The notes under the pieces: generated by a model
Seen by the model: only the letters and a program-made list of their open reading frames with translations
Told to the model about the DNA's origin: nothing
Databases searched by the model: none
Assembly (NCBI GenBank): GCA_017456555.1
Contig: JAFTJF010000011.1
Location: forward strand, 35,831 to 99,830
Length of the DNA stretch: 64,000 nt
Reading direction: 5' to 3'
DNA from: Clostridia bacterium
GTDB lineage: Bacteria; Bacillota; Clostridia; TANB77; CAG-508
Translations under genes and position numbers: made by a program
Shown: piece after piece, positions 17,946 to 48,986 of the stretch
How positions within the stretch are numbered: the first letter of the stretch is position 1
How the letters are laid out: each line of letters begins with the position of its first letter

Positions 17946-18022
17946 TGGTGCGCCCTCAAGGATTCGAACCTTGGACCCACCGGTTATGAGCCGGTTGCTC
18001 TGACCAACTGAGCTAAGGGCGC
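17946..18022 (-). tRNA. tRNA with CAT anticodon (elongator Met or lysidine-modified Ile2; not an initiator)
   Basis: Cloverleaf read by hand: acceptor GCGCCCT/AGGGCGC, anticodon arm ACCGG-CTCATAA-CCGGT, T-arm with GGTTCGAATCC, encoded CCA. Consensus promoter TTGACA, 17 nt, TATAAT on the minus strand at about 18040-18075. Confidence 0.9.
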
Positions 18023-25302: not shown

Positions 25303-25388
25303 GGGCAGGTGGTCGAGTGGTTAATGGCACCAGACTGTAAATCTGGCCGCGAGAGCGTACGATGGTTCGAATCCATCTCTGCCCACCA
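25303..25388 (+). tRNA. tRNA-Tyr (GTA), class II with a long variable arm
   Basis: Anticodon arm CCAGA-CTGTAAA-TCTGG, T-arm GATGG-TTCGAAT-CCATC, encoded CCA. Promoter TTGACA, 17 nt, TATAAT upstream. Confidence 0.92.
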
Positions 25389-25463
25389 TTAAAATTTAAA
25401 TAAAAAAAGTGTTGACAAACAGAAAATTATATAGTAAAATAATTTTCGTCAACTAGTTAAAAC

Positions 25464-25539
25464 GGTCGCTTAGCTCAGCTGGGAGAGCATCTGCCTTACA
25501 AGCAGGAGGTCATTGGTTCGATCCCAATAGCGACCACCA
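25464..25539 (+). tRNA. tRNA-Val (TAC)
   Basis: Anticodon loop CTTACAA, T-loop GGTTCGATCCC, encoded CCA. Second promoter TTGACA, 17 nt, TAAAAT upstream. Confidence 0.92.
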
Positions 25540-25546
25540 CTTATTT

Positions 25547-25623
25547 GGCCTGGTAGTTCAGTTGGTTAGAATGCCGCCCTGTCACGGCGGAGGTCGACGG
25601 TTCGAGCCCGTTCCAGGTCGCCA
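25547..25623 (+). tRNA. tRNA-Asp (GTC)
   Basis: Anticodon arm CCGCC-CTGTCAC-GGCGG, T-loop GGTTCGAGCCC, encoded CCA. Confidence 0.92.
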
Positions 25624-25661
25624 TAAATATCTAGTTGAAAAACTAGATATTTTTTATATAA

Positions 25662-25737
25662 GGCTTCGTAGCTCAGTTGGTAGAGCAGGGGACTGAAAAT
25701 CCCCGTGTCAGCGGTTCGATTCCACTCGAAGCCACCA
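25662..25737 (+). tRNA. tRNA-Phe (GAA)
   Basis: Anticodon arm GGGGA-CTGAAAA-TCCCC, T-loop GGTTCGATTCC, encoded CCA. Confidence 0.92.
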
Positions 25738-42318: not shown

Positions 42319-42442
42319 AACCAAAATATGTTAATAAAAAAAGGTGTATTAATTTTAATACATCTTTTTTTGTTGGTATAATAAAACGAAAAACTTGACA
42401 TAATATACAAAACTAGTGTATAATTAATATTAGTTAAATATT

Positions 42443-42744
42443 TTGCGATGAAGATGAAAGCTATCAAATACTATTTTACAGAGAAAAAACGCCACCGGCT
42501 GAGAGCGTTTTAAATAAAGGTTGATATGTGAAACACATTGGAGCAAACTTAAAATATTGTAAATTTTGTATGCAATATTTTATTTTAAAAGTGGGAAACG
42601 TTTTTACTTTAATACAAATTTGTAAATTATAAAAATACAATTTGTTATTTCCTTGGAACGTTTTCAAATAGGGTGGCACCGCGGAAGTTATGAGCTTTCG
42701 TCCCTGTAGTAATTTTACTGCAGAGACGAAAGCTCTTTTGTTTT
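42443..42744 (+). promoter_or_regulatory. T-box riboswitch leader of aspS
   Basis: Stem I start TTGCGATGAAGA, distal GGCTGAGAG, T-box sequence AATAGGGTGGCACCGCGG (42666-42684), and terminator GAGCTTTCGTC..GACGAAAGCTC plus T-run. Confidence 0.88.
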
Positions 42745-42780: not shown

Positions 42781-44547
42781 ATGAAAGGAAACATGTACAG
42801 AACATATAAGTGTTCAGAATTACGTGAAAAACACGTAGGAGAAGAAATTAAACTAGCAGGATGGGTAGACACAATAAGAGATTTAGGAGGAGTTCTATTT
42901 ATTGATTTAAGAGATCAATATGGTGTAACTCAAGTAGTAGTTTCAGGAGATGAAGAAAAAGTTGAATTTGCCTCAAAAATACCAACTGAATCTACAATAT
43001 CTGTTTCAGGAAAAGTAAGATTAAGAGATGAAGAAACAATTAACTTAAAATTAGAAACTGGAACAGTAGAATTATTTGCAGATAAAATCGAAATTTTAGG
43101 TAAAAGAACAAAAGCTTTACCATTCGAAATTGAATCAGACAGAAGTGTTAGAGAAGATTTGAGATTAGAATACAGATTTTTAGATTTAAGAGCAAGAAAA
43201 AACTTAGAAAATTTAAAATTAAGAGCTGAATTAATTCAATTCTTAAGATTAAAAATGATAGAGCAAGGATTTTTAGAAGTTCAAACTCCAATCCTTACAA
43301 GTTCATCACCAGAAGGTGCAAGAGATTATTTAGTACCAAGTAGAATGTACCCAGGAAAATTTTATGCACTTCCACAAGCACCACAACAATTTAAACAATT
43401 ATTAATGGTTTCTGGAATTGATAAATATTTCCAAATAGCACCTTGTTTTAGAGATGAAGATTCAAGAGCAGATAGATCTCCTGGAGAATTCTATCAATTA
43501 GATATGGAAATGGCTTTTGCTACTCAAGAAGATGTATTTTCAGTAATGGAAAAAGTAATGTATGATACATTTACAAGATTCTCTGATAAAAAAGTTGCAG
43601 AATATCCATTCCCAAGAATTCCATATGAGGAAGCGATGCTTAAATATGGTAGTGATAAACCAGATTTAAGAAACCCATTAGAAATAAAAGATGTTACAAA
43701 CATTTTTGAAAAAATAGATATAAAAGTATTTAATGGGAAAATCGTTAGAACAATTACACTTCCAGAAGGAGCGGCTGTAGAAAGATCTTTCTATGATGGT
43801 ATGACAGAATTTGCTATAGAAGATTGTAAAGCAAAAGGTTTAGCTTGGATAAAAATATTAGAAGATGGAGAATGGCAAGGTCCAATAGCTAAATTTATTG
43901 ATGAAGAATCAAGAAAAGAATTCATGAAACAAACAGATACAAAAATCGGAGATAGTGTATTCTTTATTGCAGAACATAAAGGAATTGTAGAAAAACTAGC
44001 TGGAGAAATAAGAAAGGAAATTGGAAAAAGACAAGGATTAATAGATGATTCAGAATATAGATTCTGCTGGATAGTAGATTTCCCAATGTATGAATTAACA
44101 GATAGCGGAAAAATTGATTTTTGTCACAACCCATTTTCGATGCCACAAGGTGGATTAGAAGCGTTAACAACTAAAGATCCATTAGATATTTATGCATATC
44201 AATATGATATAGTTTGTAACGGAATAGAACTTTCTTCTGGTGCTGTTAGAAACCATGATCCAGAAATCATGATAAAAGCATTTGAAATTGCAGGATATAC
44301 AGAAGAAGATATTAAAACAAAATTTGCTGCATTATTTAAAGCTTTTCATTATGGAGCACCACCACATGCTGGAATTGCACCAGGTGTTGATAGAATATTA
44401 ATGCTTTTAGCTGGAGAAGAATCAATAAGAGAAGTTATTGCATTTCCAATGAACTCAAAAGCACAAGACCTTTTAATGGGAGCGCCAGGAGTTGTTACAG
44501 AAAAACAATTAAGAGAAGTTCATATTAAGCTAGATATAAAAAAATAA
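42781..44547 (+). CDS. aspS: Aspartate--tRNA ligase (bacterial type, 588 aa)
   Basis: OB anticodon-binding domain, class II motifs (FRDEDSRADRSPEFYQLD, GIELSSGAVRNH, GIAPGVDR) and the bacterial insertion domain. Confidence 0.95.
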   Translation: MKGNMYRTYKCSELREKHVGEEIKLAGWVDTIRDLGGVLFIDLRDQYGVTQVVVSGDEEKVEFASKIPTESTISVSGKVRLRDEETINLKLETGTVELFADKIEILGKRTKALPFEIESDRSVREDLRLEYRFLDLRARKNLENLKLRAELIQFLRLKMIEQGFLEVQTPILTSSSPEGARDYLVPSRMYPGKFYALPQAPQQFKQLLMVSGIDKYFQIAPCFRDEDSRADRSPGEFYQLDMEMAFATQEDVFSVMEKVMYDTFTRFSDKKVAEYPFPRIPYEEAMLKYGSDKPDLRNPLEIKDVTNIFEKIDIKVFNGKIVRTITLPEGAAVERSFYDGMTEFAIEDCKAKGLAWIKILEDGEWQGPIAKFIDEESRKEFMKQTDTKIGDSVFFIAEHKGIVEKLAGEIRKEIGKRQGLIDDSEYRFCWIVDFPMYELTDSGKIDFCHNPFSMPQGGLEALTTKDPLDIYAYQYDIVCNGIELSSGAVRNHDPEIMIKAFEIAGYTEEDIKTKFAALFKAFHYGAPPHAGIAPGVDRILMLLAGEESIREVIAFPMNSKAQDLLMGAPGVVTEKQLREVHIKLDIKK

Positions 44548-44694
44548 ATTTAATTTAATAATATAAAAATTACTAATAAAATTTAATTTTTATATTAATT
44601 TTGAAAAAGCAGTTTTTCTTTAGAAAAGACTGCTTTTCATACTGTTTGGTGTAAAAGGAAACTATAATAAAATTTACAAAAAAGGAAATTTTAT

Positions 44695-44729
44695 GTTGAC
44701 AAGCAAAAAAAATCGTGCTAACATTTTAA
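44695..44729 (+). promoter_or_regulatory. Promoter of the leader-peptide / ABC transporter operon
   Basis: TTGACA (44695-44700), 17 nt, TGcTAACAT. Confidence 0.55.
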
Positions 44730-44760
44730 TATAGAAAAAATCAAAGGAGAATTATTTTTT

Positions 44761-44802
44761 ATGAATTTAGTAAAAGGTAACAAACATCATCATAAAAAAT
44801 AG
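44761..44802 (+). CDS. 13-codon leader peptide MNLVKGNKHHHKK with three consecutive His codons
   Basis: RBS AAAGGAGA 10 nt upstream. CAT CAT CAT at 44785-44793. The stop codon abuts the first of several mutually exclusive hairpin segments. Confidence 0.55.
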   Translation: MNLVKGNKHHHKK

Positions 44803-44864
44803 CTTGTGTCTTAGAATATATTAGGCACAGGCTTTTGATGATGCTTGTGCCTTTAGTGTTTTTA

Positions 44865-44915
44865 AGAGCCTTAAAGGTACTAGAATAAATCTAGAATACC
44901 TTTAGGGCTCTTTTT
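44865..44915 (+). terminator. Attenuator terminator
   Basis: 15-bp stem AGAGCCTTAAAGGTA / TACCTTTAGGGCTCT followed by TTTTT. It lies between the promoter/leader and the transporter genes. Confidence 0.75.
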
Positions 44916-45131
44916 GTATACCAAAATCAATTTTACAAATAGCGCGCAAAATAAAATTGATTTTTGCAAGTTTTATGATGAATTTAAAATTATAAAAATA
45001 GAAATATAAAAAAGAGAGGGAATTAATAAAATTCTTACTTTGGTTTTGAAATAAATTTATTTAATAGATAAATTTAGATGATAAAAAAGAAAATAAATTA
45101 TTTATTAAAAAGAAAAAATGGAGGTAATATT

Positions 45132-45932
45132 ATGAAAAATATGGTAAAAGGAATAATTGCAGTAGTTGCAGTTTTTATAATTGTTGTAGGAATATTTTAT
45201 ATGAATAGAGATACAGAAGGAAATAATGAAGATACATTAGTGGTTGGATTAGATGATAGTTTTCCACCAATGGGATTTAGAAATGAAAATAATGAAATAG
45301 TTGGATTTGATATTGATTTGGCTAAAGCAGTAGCAGAAGAACTAGGGATGGAAGTTAAATTTCAACCAATATCATGGGCTTCAAAAGAACAAGAATTAAG
45401 TTCTGGAAATATAGATTGTATTTGGAATGGATTTGCATATAACGAAGAAAGAGCAGCGACAATGACATTAACAGATCCATACATAAAAGGAGAAAACTAT
45501 TTTATATTAAAAAATGGTAGTAAAGTAACATCTCAAGAAGAATTAAAAGGAAAGAAAATAGGAGTTCAAACAGGTTCAATACAAGCACAAGACTTAGAAA
45601 AATCTGAATTTGGAAAAGCAGTAGAGATAATACAATATGGTGATAATTTAACAGCCTTTATGGATTTAGAAACAGAAGGAATTGATGCATTATTTTGTTC
45701 TAACATCATTGGAAACTATTTAATAACTTCAAAAGGAAAAGATTATGAAACTATTGCCTCAGAAAATATTACAGTATCAAATGGAAGTGTAATTGCATTT
45801 AAACAAGGTAATACAGAATTAAGAGATAAAATTCAAAATGCATTAATAAGATTAGAACAAACTGGAAGTTTAGATAGTATTTCAGAAAAATGGTTTGGAA
45901 AAGATATGATAATAATTAATGAGGTGAAGTAA
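45132..45932 (+). CDS. Polar amino-acid ABC transporter substrate-binding protein
   Basis: Signal anchor, then GLDDSFPPMGFRNENNEIVGFDIDLAKAVA..IDCIWNGF. RBS GGAGGT before ATG 45132. Confidence 0.88.
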   Translation: MKNMVKGIIAVVAVFIIVVGIFYMNRDTEGNNEDTLVVGLDDSFPPMGFRNENNEIVGFDIDLAKAVAEELGMEVKFQPISWASKEQELSSGNIDCIWNGFAYNEERAATMTLTDPYIKGENYFILKNGSKVTSQEELKGKKIGVQTGSIQAQDLEKSEFGKAVEIIQYGDNLTAFMDLETEGIDALFCSNIIGNYLITSKGKDYETIASENITVSNGSVIAFKQGNTELRDKIQNALIRLEQTGSLDSISEKWFGKDMIIINEVK

Positions 45933-45933
45933 T

Positions 45934-46584
45934 ATGAATTTAGAACAGACAATAAATGTAGCGAAAATACTATTTTCTGGAATAGGAGTATCACTTCAAA
46001 TATTTGTTTTAACATTCATATTTTCAATACCACTTGGAATTATAGTTGCAGTTCTTAGAAATTCAAAATGTAAAATAATTTCATATTTGATGAAAGGATA
46101 TATTTTACTAATTCGTGGAACTCCAATAATGCTTCAAATTATAGTTGTTTACTTTTGTCCTTATTATATGTTTAGAGTGAGTTATGACAGATTTGCCGCT
46201 ATAATAATTGCTTTTGTAATTAATTATGCAGCTTATTTTTCAGAAATATTTAGAAGCGGAATTAATAGTATTCCAGATGGACAAAAAGAGGCAGCATATA
46301 CTTTGGGATTTAATAAAGTTCAAACATTTTTCTTAATAATTTTACCACAAGTTGTGAAAATTATTTTACCATCAATGTCTAATGAGGTTATTTCTCTTTT
46401 GAAAACAACTTCACTTGCTCAAATTATTGGTGTAACAGAAATGTTTGCGTTAGCACAAAAACAAGCAAGCTATAATTTTTCAATAATTCCTTTAGTACTA
46501 GCAGGAGGTTATTACTTAATCTTAGTATTTTTCGTATCAATATTATTTAATAAGGCAGAGAAAAAATTGGAGTATTATAGTTAA
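45934..46584 (+). CDS. Polar amino-acid ABC transporter permease (His/Glu/Gln/Arg/opine family)
   Basis: EAA-loop-like block EAAYTLGFNKVQTFFLIILPQ and five TM segments. Confidence 0.92.
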   Translation: MNLEQTINVAKILFSGIGVSLQIFVLTFIFSIPLGIIVAVLRNSKCKIISYLMKGYILLIRGTPIMLQIIVVYFCPYYMFRVSYDRFAAIIIAFVINYAAYFSEIFRSGINSIPDGQKEAAYTLGFNKVQTFFLIILPQVVKIILPSMSNEVISLLKTTSLAQIIGVTEMFALAQKQASYNFSIIPLVLAGGYYLILVFFVSILFNKAEKKLEYYS

Positions 46585-46697: not shown

Positions 46698-48986
46698 ATG
46701 AATGTTTTAGAAGTTAAAAATTTAAGTAAAAAATTTGAAAATATAGAAGTAATAAAAGATGTATCTTTTTCTGTAAAAGAAGGCGAAACATTAGTAATAT
46801 TAGGACCTTCTGGGAGTGGAAAATCTACACTTTTAAGATGCATAAACAATTTAGAAAAAATAGATTCAGGAAATATTATTATAAACGAAAAAGAAATGAT
46901 TAAAGAATATAAAAATAATAAACTAGTTTACAATGATAAAGAAATTTTGAACAAAATAAATTTAGACACAGGAATGGTATTTCAAGATTTTAATTTATTT
47001 CCACATTTATCAGTTAAAGAAAATATAACAATAAGTTTGATAAATGTTTTGAAAATGTCAAAAGAAGAGGCAAATAAAAAAGCTGATGAAGTCCTTGAAA
47101 AAATGGATTTAAAAGAAAAAGAAAATTCTTATCCGTGTGATTTATCAGGTGGACAAAAACAAAGAGTTTCTATTGCAAGAGTTTTAGCAATAAATCCTAA
47201 AATTATTTGTATGGATGAACCAACTAGTGCTCTTGATCCAGAACTTGTTGGTGAAGTCTTGAAAACTATAAAACAATTATCTAAGGAAAATAGAACAATG
47301 ATAATAGTAACTCACGAAATTAAATTTGCAGAAGAAGTTGCTGATAGAGTTATATTCATGGATGGTGGGATTATTGTGGAAGAAGGTAAACCTGAAGAGG
47401 TTATAAAAAGACCGCAAAAGCCAAGAACAAAAGAGTTTTTGAAAAGATATATTAATTTTGAGGTGAATGATTTGAAAGAATTAGATATAGAAGAAAACGA
47501 ACCAAGAGAGGTAATTGAATTTTTTAAAGAAATAAGTGATATTCCAAGAGAATCTGGAAATGAAGAAAGGATAAGAGATTATCTAGTAAATTTTGCAAAA
47601 GAAAGAAATTTAGAATATTACACAGATAAATATTTTAATGTAATTATTAGAAAAGAAGCTTCAGAAGGATTTGAAAATGAAGAAATTCTAGGATTTCAAG
47701 CTCATACAGATATGATTTGTGAAAAAATAGAAGGAAGTACACATGATTTTTCAAAAGATCCAATCAAATTATATCAAGACGGTGATTTTATAACAGCTAA
47801 TGGAACTACTTTAGGTGCGGATAACGGAATTGGTGTTGCATATATGCTTGCAATTTTAGATTCAAATAAAATCAAAGGTCCTAAAATAGAATGTATATTT
47901 ACAACTCAAGAAGAAACAACAATGATTGGCGCTAAAGAAATTGATGAATCTCAAATTAAATGTAGAAAAATGATTTCCTTAGATAATGGAAAACAAGGAA
48001 AAATGGTTATAAGCTCTGCAAATTGTATGGAATGGTTTGGTGAAATTAAAACAGAAAAAATAGATTTACTAGAAAATGATTTGACTTTATTTGAGCTTAC
48101 TTATTCTAATTTTATTGGTGGACACTCTGGTGGAAATATTGGTGATATAAAAAGAGGAAATCCTATTAAACTTGGAATTGAAGTTATAGAGAATATTGAT
48201 GAAATTTATATTCAAAGTTTAGAAGGTGGAAGCAGAGTAAATGTAATTCCAAGAGACTTTAAAATTTGTTTTTGGGCTAGAGAAAATGAATATGGAAAAA
48301 TGAAAGAAAAAGTAAATAAGCAAATTAGATTTTATGGCGAAGATGTTAATATAAAATTAAATAGGAGTGATATAAAACTAGGAAGAGAAAATAATGAGAA
48401 AGATATAGAAAATGAGCTATATGAAAATAATGATATAAACATAAAAGAAAATAATAAACAAAAAGAAATTAGAAAAGTTTATAGTAAAAATATAACTAAA
48501 AAAATAATTAATTTTGTAAATTCATTTGTAAATGGTGCAATCGAATATGATGATAACAATAATGTTGTTTTATCAGCAAATTTTGCAGCAGCAAAATGCT
48601 TAGAAAATTCTGTTAGATTTGAATATTCTTTAAGAGCAAATAATTTAAAATTGAGAGATAAATATTTAGAAAATTTGAGAAAAATTGAAAAAGAAAATGA
48701 TATAAAAATATCTTGGGAACAAGAATTAAAAGGTATTGAGCCAGATTTTGAAAATGAATTAGTAAAAAAATGTTCAATAATATATAAAGAAATTTTTGAT
48801 GAGGAAATGGAATTAAAAATTTCACAAGGTGTTGTTGAAGGTGGATTTTTTAAATACAAAATTGAAGATTTAGAATATGTATGTATTGGACCAAATACTT
48901 TTGATGTTCACAGTCCAAAAGAAAGAGTTTCTATAAAATCTATGCAAGTAACATGGGAATATATTAAAAAAATCATATTTTCTTAG
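46698..48986 (+). CDS. Amino-acid ABC transporter ATP-binding protein continuous with an aminoacyl-histidine (Xaa-His) dipeptidase PepD (M20C) in one 762-codon ORF
   Basis: N-terminus: GPSGSGKST, LSGGQKQRVSIAR, MDEPTSALD. C-terminus: FQAHTDMI, HDFSKDPI, GTTLGADNGIG, GGHSGG, GPNTFDVHSPKERV. No in-frame stop at the junction. A possible internal start TTG 47472 follows GAGGTG. Confidence 0.85.
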   Translation: MNVLEVKNLSKKFENIEVIKDVSFSVKEGETLVILGPSGSGKSTLLRCINNLEKIDSGNIIINEKEMIKEYKNNKLVYNDKEILNKINLDTGMVFQDFNLFPHLSVKENITISLINVLKMSKEEANKKADEVLEKMDLKEKENSYPCDLSGGQKQRVSIARVLAINPKIICMDEPTSALDPELVGEVLKTIKQLSKENRTMIIVTHEIKFAEEVADRVIFMDGGIIVEEGKPEEVIKRPQKPRTKEFLKRYINFEVNDLKELDIEENEPREVIEFFKEISDIPRESGNEERIRDYLVNFAKERNLEYYTDKYFNVIIRKEASEGFENEEILGFQAHTDMICEKIEGSTHDFSKDPIKLYQDGDFITANGTTLGADNGIGVAYMLAILDSNKIKGPKIECIFTTQEETTMIGAKEIDESQIKCRKMISLDNGKQGKMVISSANCMEWFGEIKTEKIDLLENDLTLFELTYSNFIGGHSGGNIGDIKRGNPIKLGIEVIENIDEIYIQSLEGGSRVNVIPRDFKICFWARENEYGKMKEKVNKQIRFYGEDVNIKLNRSDIKLGRENNEKDIENELYENNDINIKENNKQKEIRKVYSKNITKKIINFVNSFVNGAIEYDDNNNVVLSANFAAAKCLENSVRFEYSLRANNLKLRDKYLENLRKIEKENDIKISWEQELKGIEPDFENELVKKCSIIYKEIFDEEMELKISQGVVEGGFFKYKIEDLEYVCIGPNTFDVHSPKERVSIKSMQVTWEYIKKIIFS

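Follow-up and report, generated by a model that had tools for sequence, protein, structure and literature searches.

Upstream of an operon for an ATP-binding cassette (ABC) importer and an Xaa-His dipeptidase, the 64,000-nucleotide (nt) stretch of Clostridia bacterium contig JAFTJF010000011.1 analysed here (the window) carries a leader that is very probably a ribosome-mediated transcription attenuator, in which translation of a short peptide would sense charged tRNA-His and control the operon. This reading, drawn from sequence comparison and folding models, is supported by the conservation of the leader and its helices in relatives, by a switch in folding when the positions covered by a ribosome are masked and by the histidine-linked genes downstream. 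The same three lines of evidence support the stop-versus-stall logic put forward in an earlier note on this DNA, according to which segments S3 and S4 pair when the ribosome reaches the stop codon of the leader and S2 and S3 pair when it stalls on the His codons. Coordinates are positions within the window, and the element lies on the + strand.

Leader sequence and alternative pairings

The element begins with a sigma-70-type promoter at 44696-44724, consisting of TTGACA (44696-44701), a 17-nt spacer ending in TG and the -10 element TAACAT (44719-44724). It is followed by a Shine-Dalgarno (SD) site, AAAGGAGA (44743-44750), whose GGAG end is 11 nt from the ATG of a 13-codon leader open reading frame (ORF) encoding MNLVKGNKHHHKK* (44761-44802). 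Three His codons, CAT CAT CAT, occupy 44785-44793, and the TAG stop codon (44800-44802) overlaps S2. Promoter, SD site and ORF were all present on direct reading, as the earlier note had described them. The window has a G+C content of 26.9%, and by count alone the His triplet is not beyond chance (CAYCAYCAY occurs six times in the window against 2.5 expected), so that its significance rests on structure and on conservation in relatives.

The leader was divided into six segments: the body of the ORF including the His codons (segment 1, 44772-44793), S2 (segment 2, AGCTTGTGTCT, 44801-44811, which begins inside the stop codon), S3 (segment 3, AGGCACAGGCT, 44823-44833), S4 with its extension (segment 4, 44843-44856), the terminator 5' arm (segment 5) and the terminator 3' arm with the U run (segment 6). 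The intrinsic terminator spans 44864-44915, with the 5' arm at 44864-44884, the loop at 44885-44889, the 3' arm at 44890-44912 and the U run at 44911-44915. S3 can pair with S2 or, alternatively, with S4 proper (GCTTGTGCC, 44843-44851), and the 3' part of S4 together with its extension (GTGCCTTTAG, 44847-44856) can pair with the terminator 5' arm to form an antiterminator. Every pairing proposed in the earlier note was verified base by base. S2:S3 (44801-44810 with 44824-44833) comprises 10 base pairs (bp), two of them G-U, S3:S4 (44824-44832 with 44843-44851) comprises 9 bp with one G-U, and the antiterminator (44848-44856 with 44871-44879) comprises 9 bp with two G-U. The terminator stem (44865-44879 with 44897-44911) has 15 bp, including one G-U, and runs into the U run, and the His-codon stretch CATCATCA (44785-44792) is complementary over 8 bp to TGATGATG (44836-44843).

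The 191-nt leader folds at -64.8 kcal/mol, compared with -33.7 +/- 4.1 kcal/mol for shuffled sequences (z = -7.7), and none of 200 shuffles was as stable. Calculated duplex energies in the window are -20.9 kcal/mol for 1:4, -16.3 kcal/mol for 2:3, -18.4 kcal/mol for 3:4 and -15.9 kcal/mol for 4:5, with about -28.4 to -29.2 kcal/mol for the terminator 5:6. In the minimum free energy (MFE) fold, segment 1 pairs with 44835-44855 (the spacer, S4 and its extension) and encloses the S2:S3 hairpin, and the terminator is formed. This 1:4 pairing had been missed by the earlier note, whose list of pairings otherwise stood; it would be the default state of an untranslated, ribosome-free leader, which is also a terminating one. 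The AAAGG of the ORF mimics TAAAGG of the terminator 5' arm, and such mimics (AAAGG in KG types and TTAG in FRNE types of the leader peptides described below) pair with the S4 extension. Other leader types have an equivalent 1:4 pairing of different sequence.

The footprint of a 70S ribosome extends from about 12 nt before to about 15 nt after the first base of its P-site codon. Transcription would start from the promoter at 44696-44724, and the RNA can form the pairings 1:4, 2:3, 3:4, 4:5 and 5:6. When histidine is plentiful, a ribosome at the stop codon would have a footprint of about 44785-44812, which includes S2; 3:4 and 5:6 would then form and transcription would stop at about 44915. When His-tRNA is scarce, a ribosome with a His codon in its A site would cover about 44770-44800, masking segment 1 and leaving S2 free. 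In this stalled state 2:3 would form, and the unpaired segment 4 would bind the terminator 5' arm (4:5) ahead of synthesis of the 3' arm, allowing readthrough into the operon. If the leader is not translated, 1:4, 2:3 and 5:6 would form and transcription would terminate. Polymerase and ribosome may be synchronized by a pause at the S2:S3 hairpin, which is followed by UUUU. In this scheme we infer the footprint sizes, the kinetic order of folding, the synchronization of polymerase and ribosome and the response to histidine itself.

Downstream operon and conservation in relatives

The first gene of the putatively regulated operon (45132-45932) encodes a family-3 (polar amino acid) substrate-binding protein. 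Its ORF has a second in-frame ATG at 45078, and the start at 45132 is the likely one because it is preceded by a strong GGAGG SD site. An ABC permease gene (45934-46584) follows, and the third gene (46698-48986) encodes a fusion protein of 762 residues, with an ABC ATPase of the polar-amino-acid type at residues 1-252 and PepD, an Xaa-His (aminoacyl-histidine) dipeptidase, at residues ~268-760. The PepD domain scores 377 bits with TIGR01893, over its cut-off, and its structure matches are PDB entries 2qyv and 3mru. An Xaa-His dipeptidase that is fused or adjacent to the transporter connects the operon with histidine, as would suit a sensor specific for His. ATPase and PepD are fused in four relatives introduced below (L172, 5969-8164; L175, 6104-8290; L176, 5963-8074; L177, 5967-8156, in coordinates of those loci) and are encoded by separate adjacent genes in L173, L178 and L179. 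The fusion suggests that uptake and hydrolysis of a His-containing substrate are coupled; no literature on such an ATPase-PepD fusion was found.

Relatives were collected through the binding protein, giving a sample of 14 loci that is unbiased with respect to the RNA. It consists of the window, the five closest loci in a species-representative genome collection (L001-L005, binding protein 49-71% identical) and eight loci from an exact protein look-up (L172-L179, 67-78% identical). Many relatives of the binding protein were returned by the homology search, for the most part metagenome proteins; the few with a name were from 'Clostridia bacterium' metagenome-assembled genomes. A short ORF ending in HH or HHH, one to four further codons and a stop is present in all 14 loci (binding protein at least 49% and up to 88% identical), 170-330 nt upstream of the binding-protein gene. 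In L001-L005, where this distance is 170-220 nt, the peptides are MKSQIFLNQLHHHRRSL, MKNVNLGYNHHHKK, MRNILNNKGLNHHHR, METKIIFRNEHHKN and METKIIIRNEHHKI. The 75 orthologs at greater distance (L006-L080), which come from spirochaetes, Fibrobacter and other groups, all lack a His ORF with this architecture. Alignment of orthologous upstream regions, a check that the earlier note had proposed, revealed that the ORF, the spacing from the His run to S2, the alternative helices and the terminator are kept in every close locus. The genes upstream vary among loci (aspS, ispD, TnpV/ArsC, acetyltransferases and a radical-SAM gene), so the element appears to travel with the downstream operon.

A metagenome collection was scanned with a pattern of the RNA core only, CTTGTGYC-N-GGCACARGC-N-GCTTGTGCC, in which no ORF was specified. 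Of 91 matching stretches, 73 contain a short ORF with HH or HHH that ends 0-1 nt before S2, and the same binding protein, permease and ATPase are encoded downstream in every one of these with enough DNA. PepD is present too in the HHH types, and the HH types have no PepD in the fetched DNA. The remaining 18 matches are GC-rich, ORF-less and apparently unrelated. A near-identical GC-richer element, CTTGTGCCAGTGGCACAAGCACAACCTGTGCCAATGTGCTTGTGCC, which lacks a His ORF and is a chance match to the pattern, an unrelated repeat or conserved sequence, recurs in ten short metagenome contigs, L091, L097, L105, L107, L108, L110, L121, L124, L140 and L171.

Leader peptide types include ...KGNKHHHKK, MRNILNNKGLNHHH[RSC] and M..K.I.FRNEHH[KT][NSI]. 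The ORFs of the relatives have 13-19 codons and varying N-termini, and HH or HHH is always in frame, one to four codons before the stop. The third His codon is the synonymous CAC in the MRNILNNKGLNHHHR type, one His codon has been lost from L176 through an in-frame 3-nt deletion, and the His codons are retained even in types without the complementary ATGATG downstream (for example the L003 type). These features, including the in-frame His run in peptides of differing length and N-terminus, are signs that the ORF is constrained as a coding sequence. A promoter of the form TTGACA (TTGACT in one locus), 17-18 nt and TAnnnT is found 23-39 nt upstream of the leader ATG in each of the 27 copies examined that are single or come first, and its -10 element has the TG extension in 23 of them.

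The last His codon lies 6-8 nt from S2 in all types, and all five helices were found in 16 of 16 representative types, which fall into two RNA classes. In class II (L001, L173, L178 and L179), S2 (AGCTTGTAACTA), S3 (CGTAGGTACAGGCT), S4 (CTGTGCCTACGATAG) and the terminator arm (CTATTTGTAGG) all differ from their class I counterparts, and every alternative helix is retained: a G-C pair of S2:S3 is replaced by A-U, other flanking pairs sustain the S3:S4 helix and the S4 extension, CCTAC..ATAG, fits the altered terminator arm. The stop codon is 6 nt further downstream in class II, with the His-run-to-S2 spacing unchanged. Class I has three terminator-arm variants, each of which occurs with a matching S4 extension: CCTTAAAGGTA with TGCCTTTA, CCTTATGGTA with TGCC-TAAGG and CCTTACGGT with TGCCG..AAGG. 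An SD-preceded start is present in every class I copy called by the ORF script; this conservation is partly guaranteed by the construction of the set, because the script demanded an SD-like tetramer (GGAG, GAGG, AGGA or AAGG) no more than 16 nt upstream of the ATG.

The constrained folding envisaged in the earlier note was carried out on 33 non-redundant leaders, which were cut just before the terminator 3' arm and folded with ribosome-covered positions masked. The expected switch was obtained: a ribosome placed at the first His codon led to sequestration of 6 nt or more of the terminator 5' arm in 30 of the 33 leaders (mean 10.2 nt), and one placed at the stop codon did so in seven (mean 3.4 nt). 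A hairpin followed by a U run is present in all 33. For 29 class I leaders, RNAalifold returned S3:S4 and the terminator, with compensatory changes at five terminator pairs.

Two loci contain tandem attenuators before one operon (L175, 4040-4185 and 4240-4387; L177, 4080-4229 and 4250-4395), each unit having its own SD site, His ORF, S2/S3/S4 and terminator. The second units of both pairs have neither a promoter of their own nor the KG (AAAGG) mimic in the ORF. The window has a single unit.

Many class I loci also contain an AT-rich palindrome with a GC-only core between the terminator and the binding-protein gene. The cores are AAACTGGCCAGTTT, AAAATTGGTCGCGACATTTT, GTCGAC and GGCGCC, with a weak GCGCGC example in the window (44923-44964). 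The palindrome lies ~10-17 nt past the terminator in L004, L005, L090, L094 and L146 and is also found in the L003 and L082 types; those of the HH types are perfect over 12-20 bp. Folded as RNA, the palindrome of the window gives a hairpin whose stability does not exceed that of shuffled sequences (z = -0.6), and it was left out of the element as defined here. Nor does this palindrome fit the HisR consensus. Palindromes of this kind could be operators for a second regulator.

Points against the proposed attenuator and alternative explanations

Several points weigh against the attenuator reading. In ribosome-free truncated transcripts the terminator arm was sequestered in 15 of the 33 leaders, so that termination is not consistently predicted for this state; the default termination of an untranslated leader is a prediction of the full-length MFE fold. 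The stability of the terminator (-28 kcal/mol) far exceeds that of the antiterminator (-6 to -16 kcal/mol), and the switch must therefore be kinetic. Bacillota have been classed as organisms with runaway transcription, in which RNA polymerase outruns the ribosomes (PMC13323073), and a ribosome-coupled attenuator would thus need a polymerase pause. With regard to the substrate of the transporter, the nearest solved relatives of the binding protein are of the Gln/Arg type. The host is uncultured.

The statistical evidence on the stems has its own limits, which count on the same side. Most class I sequences (73 loci) were retrieved with a pattern that fixes bases of S2, S3 and S4, and covariation within the class I S2:S3, S3:S4 and antiterminator helices is weak. 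In the 29 class I leaders, 96.9% of cells are paired for S2:S3 and 87.8% for the antiterminator, against at most 53% in slid registers; shuffles give values similar to those observed. These counts reflect conservation and not covariation. The sole variable S3 base in class I is G or A and lies opposite U in both alternative helices, which is partly guaranteed by the search pattern. In a swap test, S4 extensions paired with their own terminator arms at -8.1 kcal/mol and with permuted partners at -6.35 kcal/mol (0 of 10,000 permutations as low), but the test ignores phylogeny and the S4 segment was wrongly taken for three leaders.

With respect to the covariation in S2, S3 and S4 that the earlier note had proposed as a check, conservation and pairings kept in both classes were found, whereas formal covariation inside the core stems is weak because these stems are nearly invariant. 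Near-invariance is expected, since each base must satisfy two alternative pairings, and it is not statistical proof of structure. Covariation was counted on a MAFFT alignment; the counts understate pairing and show little covariation because the stems are nearly invariant and a 1-nt indel in the HH-type terminator arm shifts the register.

Known regulatory elements were sought in and around the leader. In the region 44500-45200, nothing credible was found in Rfam at E <= 10, the best match being the aspC motif with 24 bits against a gathering threshold of 100, and no match covering the attenuator leader was obtained with the whole window at the gathering threshold. A T-box (RF00230) was rejected, with no match in 44500-45200 at E <= 10 in a search that does find one before aspS. 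The Rfam His_leader family (RF00514) was likewise rejected, with no match in that region at E <= 10 and none window-wide at the gathering threshold. The HisR operator is a 20-bp palindrome, cacTTTAnnnnnnTAAAgtg (PMC9413887). Repression by HisR was rejected as well, as ACTTTA-N6-TAAAGT with up to two mismatches has no match in 44550-45132, and its 15 matches window-wide compare with 17.7 expected.

The alternative that survives best, though we consider it improbable, is a ribosome-independent terminator/antiterminator switch, controlled by a protein, tRNA or small ligand, in which the ORF is incidental. The core, CTTGTGTC / GGCACAGGCT / GCTTGTGCC, is almost invariant although the binding proteins are only ~50% identical, which could reflect a sequence-specific partner, and GGCACAGGCT-N-GCTTGTGCC is also a DNA palindrome. 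However, invariance of the core is expected from the dual pairing of each base; the start codon, the in-frame His run and the position of the stop relative to S2 are kept even in the diverged class II, and the synonymous change from CAT to CAC and the in-frame indels point to translation. The searches that returned no Rfam family, T-box included, and no HisR-type operator for this leader also argue against such a switch.

Slightly less probable still, and in our view very unlikely, is that the short ORF and terminator belong to a small gene of their own, for a micropeptide or a small RNA, and that the operon has its own promoter past the terminator. About 216 nt separate the terminator from 45132, with weak promoter-like matches at 44963-44990, 45046-45074 and 45105-45133, but such matches number 24 against 30 expected from shuffles in this AT-rich DNA, and in some relatives the spacer between terminator and gene is only 30-60 nt. 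The same operon lies downstream in 14 of 14 protein-anchored loci and in all pattern-anchored loci with enough DNA, while the upstream neighbors vary; moreover, the peptide is not conserved beyond the His run, and the tandem units, the second of which lacks a promoter, precede a single operon.

That a leader-peptide attenuator reports general translation capacity or another amino acid, such as Lys or Arg, is equally hard to credit. In its favor, the His run is short (2-3 codons against seven in the E. coli his leader), and K or R codons mostly come next (HHHKK, HHHRK, HHHR, HHKN). Against it, His alone is found in every variant, with I, N, T, S, C, E and L among the residues after it (HHHIN, HHTS, HHIK, HHHC, HHHKE, HHHRRSL), the operon encodes an Xaa-His dipeptidase and the His attenuators published for Firmicutes contain three to five such codons (PMC9413887). 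Thus, we regard a His-sensing, ribosome-mediated attenuator as the best account of the leader.

Genomic surroundings and relation to known systems

The operon is followed by lysS. Upstream lies aspS (42781-44547), which has its own terminator-like hairpin at 44605-44637. The T-box that the earlier note had assigned to aspS is real, with E 1e-12 in a local search, but its 59.9 bits are below the Rfam gathering threshold of 93, and it went undetected at that threshold in the window-wide scan. This T-box-like leader (42439-42708) contains the conserved T-box sequence AAUAGGGUGGCACCGCG and an unusually long insertion in its terminal region. The tRNA genes in the window comprise a four-gene cluster at 25303-25734 (+ strand) and one gene at 17949-18022 (- strand).

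As far as sequence can tell, the most likely role of the attenuator is to induce a histidine-scavenging transporter/dipeptidase operon at times of histidine shortage. This would give a histidine-starvation-induced annotation to an otherwise generic 'amino acid ABC transporter' operon, one that is common in uncultured low-GC Clostridia of human, ruminant and termite gut metagenomes. A tentative extension, which we hold to be possible but rather unlikely in all its parts, is that of a so far unannotated histidine-salvage regulon of uncultured gut Clostridia, in which the importer with the ATPase-dipeptidase fusion would take up His-containing dipeptides and cleave them at once, the duplicated attenuators of L175 and L177 would sharpen the response and a pause at S2:S3 and UUUU would let ribosome-coupled attenuation work despite runaway transcription. 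A conserved ribosome-dependent attenuator in Bacillota is a test case for polymerase-ribosome synchronization.

Enterobacterial his leaders alternate between the pairings A:B, C:D and E:F and the pairings B:C and D:E. The present element resembles enterobacterial hisL in its short leader ORF with consecutive His codons, its alternating multi-segment pairing, its intrinsic terminator and its predicted default termination if untranslated. It differs in having no similarity to RF00514 and 2-3 His codons instead of seven, in its low-GC Clostridia host and in its target, an uptake and dipeptidase operon and not histidine biosynthesis. The 'enterobacterial his leader logic' invoked in the earlier note is thus the same logic, though without RF00514 similarity.

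The rarity of such elements in low-GC Gram-positives that the earlier note implied is overstated, as His-leader attenuators had already been predicted in Firmicutes (PMC2965389; PMC9413887). His leader peptides were predicted before hisZ and a hisS paralog in bacilli of the B. cereus group (Naville & Gautheret, 2010; PMC2965389), and his-operon attenuators in the B. cereus group, Peptostreptococcaceae, Lutispora and Erysipelotrichales (Ashniev et al., 2022; PMC9413887). These predicted leaders, from the same phylum, combine 3-5 His codons directly before an attenuator hairpin with a terminator and an antiterminator that can form in its place. Visual inspection of the leaders of Terrisporobacter and C. 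difficile also shows a stop codon within a ...CTTGTAA... arm, after which come ...ACAAGCC... and ...GGCTTGTAG... repeats. Family profiles run with nhmmer against the full Lutispora, Terrisporobacter and Acetoanaerobium leaders gave a best E of 0.28 (Acetoanaerobium) and no match to the other two; common ancestry with the published leaders is not shown, because this similarity is not significant. All 17 attenuator-controlled operons in the table of Ashniev et al. are his operons (PMC9413887), whereas the present family precedes an ABC importer and PepD. It therefore extends Firmicute His attenuators from histidine biosynthesis to histidine acquisition, and adds a family absent from Rfam, with more than 30 distinct leaders in two RNA classes, to the few predicted Firmicute leader-peptide attenuators.

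His T-box leaders before hisXYZ-type transporters in Lactobacillales, Listeria and Peptostreptococcaceae (PMC9413887) share the tRNA-His signal, the terminator/antiterminator output and a polar amino acid ABC importer as target. A T-box binds tRNA directly, whereas the present element, which is without a T-box signature, would use a translated ORF. A precedent in the phylum for the mechanism is the S. aureus ilv-leu leader-peptide attenuator reported by Kaiser et al. (2018; PMC5794164), which differs in being Leu-rich, in controlling a biosynthetic operon and in its unrelated sequence. The tandem units of L175 and L177 are comparable to the tandem attenuators of the Salmonella mgtCBR leader (PMC3641672); set beside these, they are duplicates of each other, each with its own His run, and the arrangement is a minor variation with precedent in mgtCBR. 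The leaders described here are thus a new sequence family of a known kind of attenuator and not a new mechanism.

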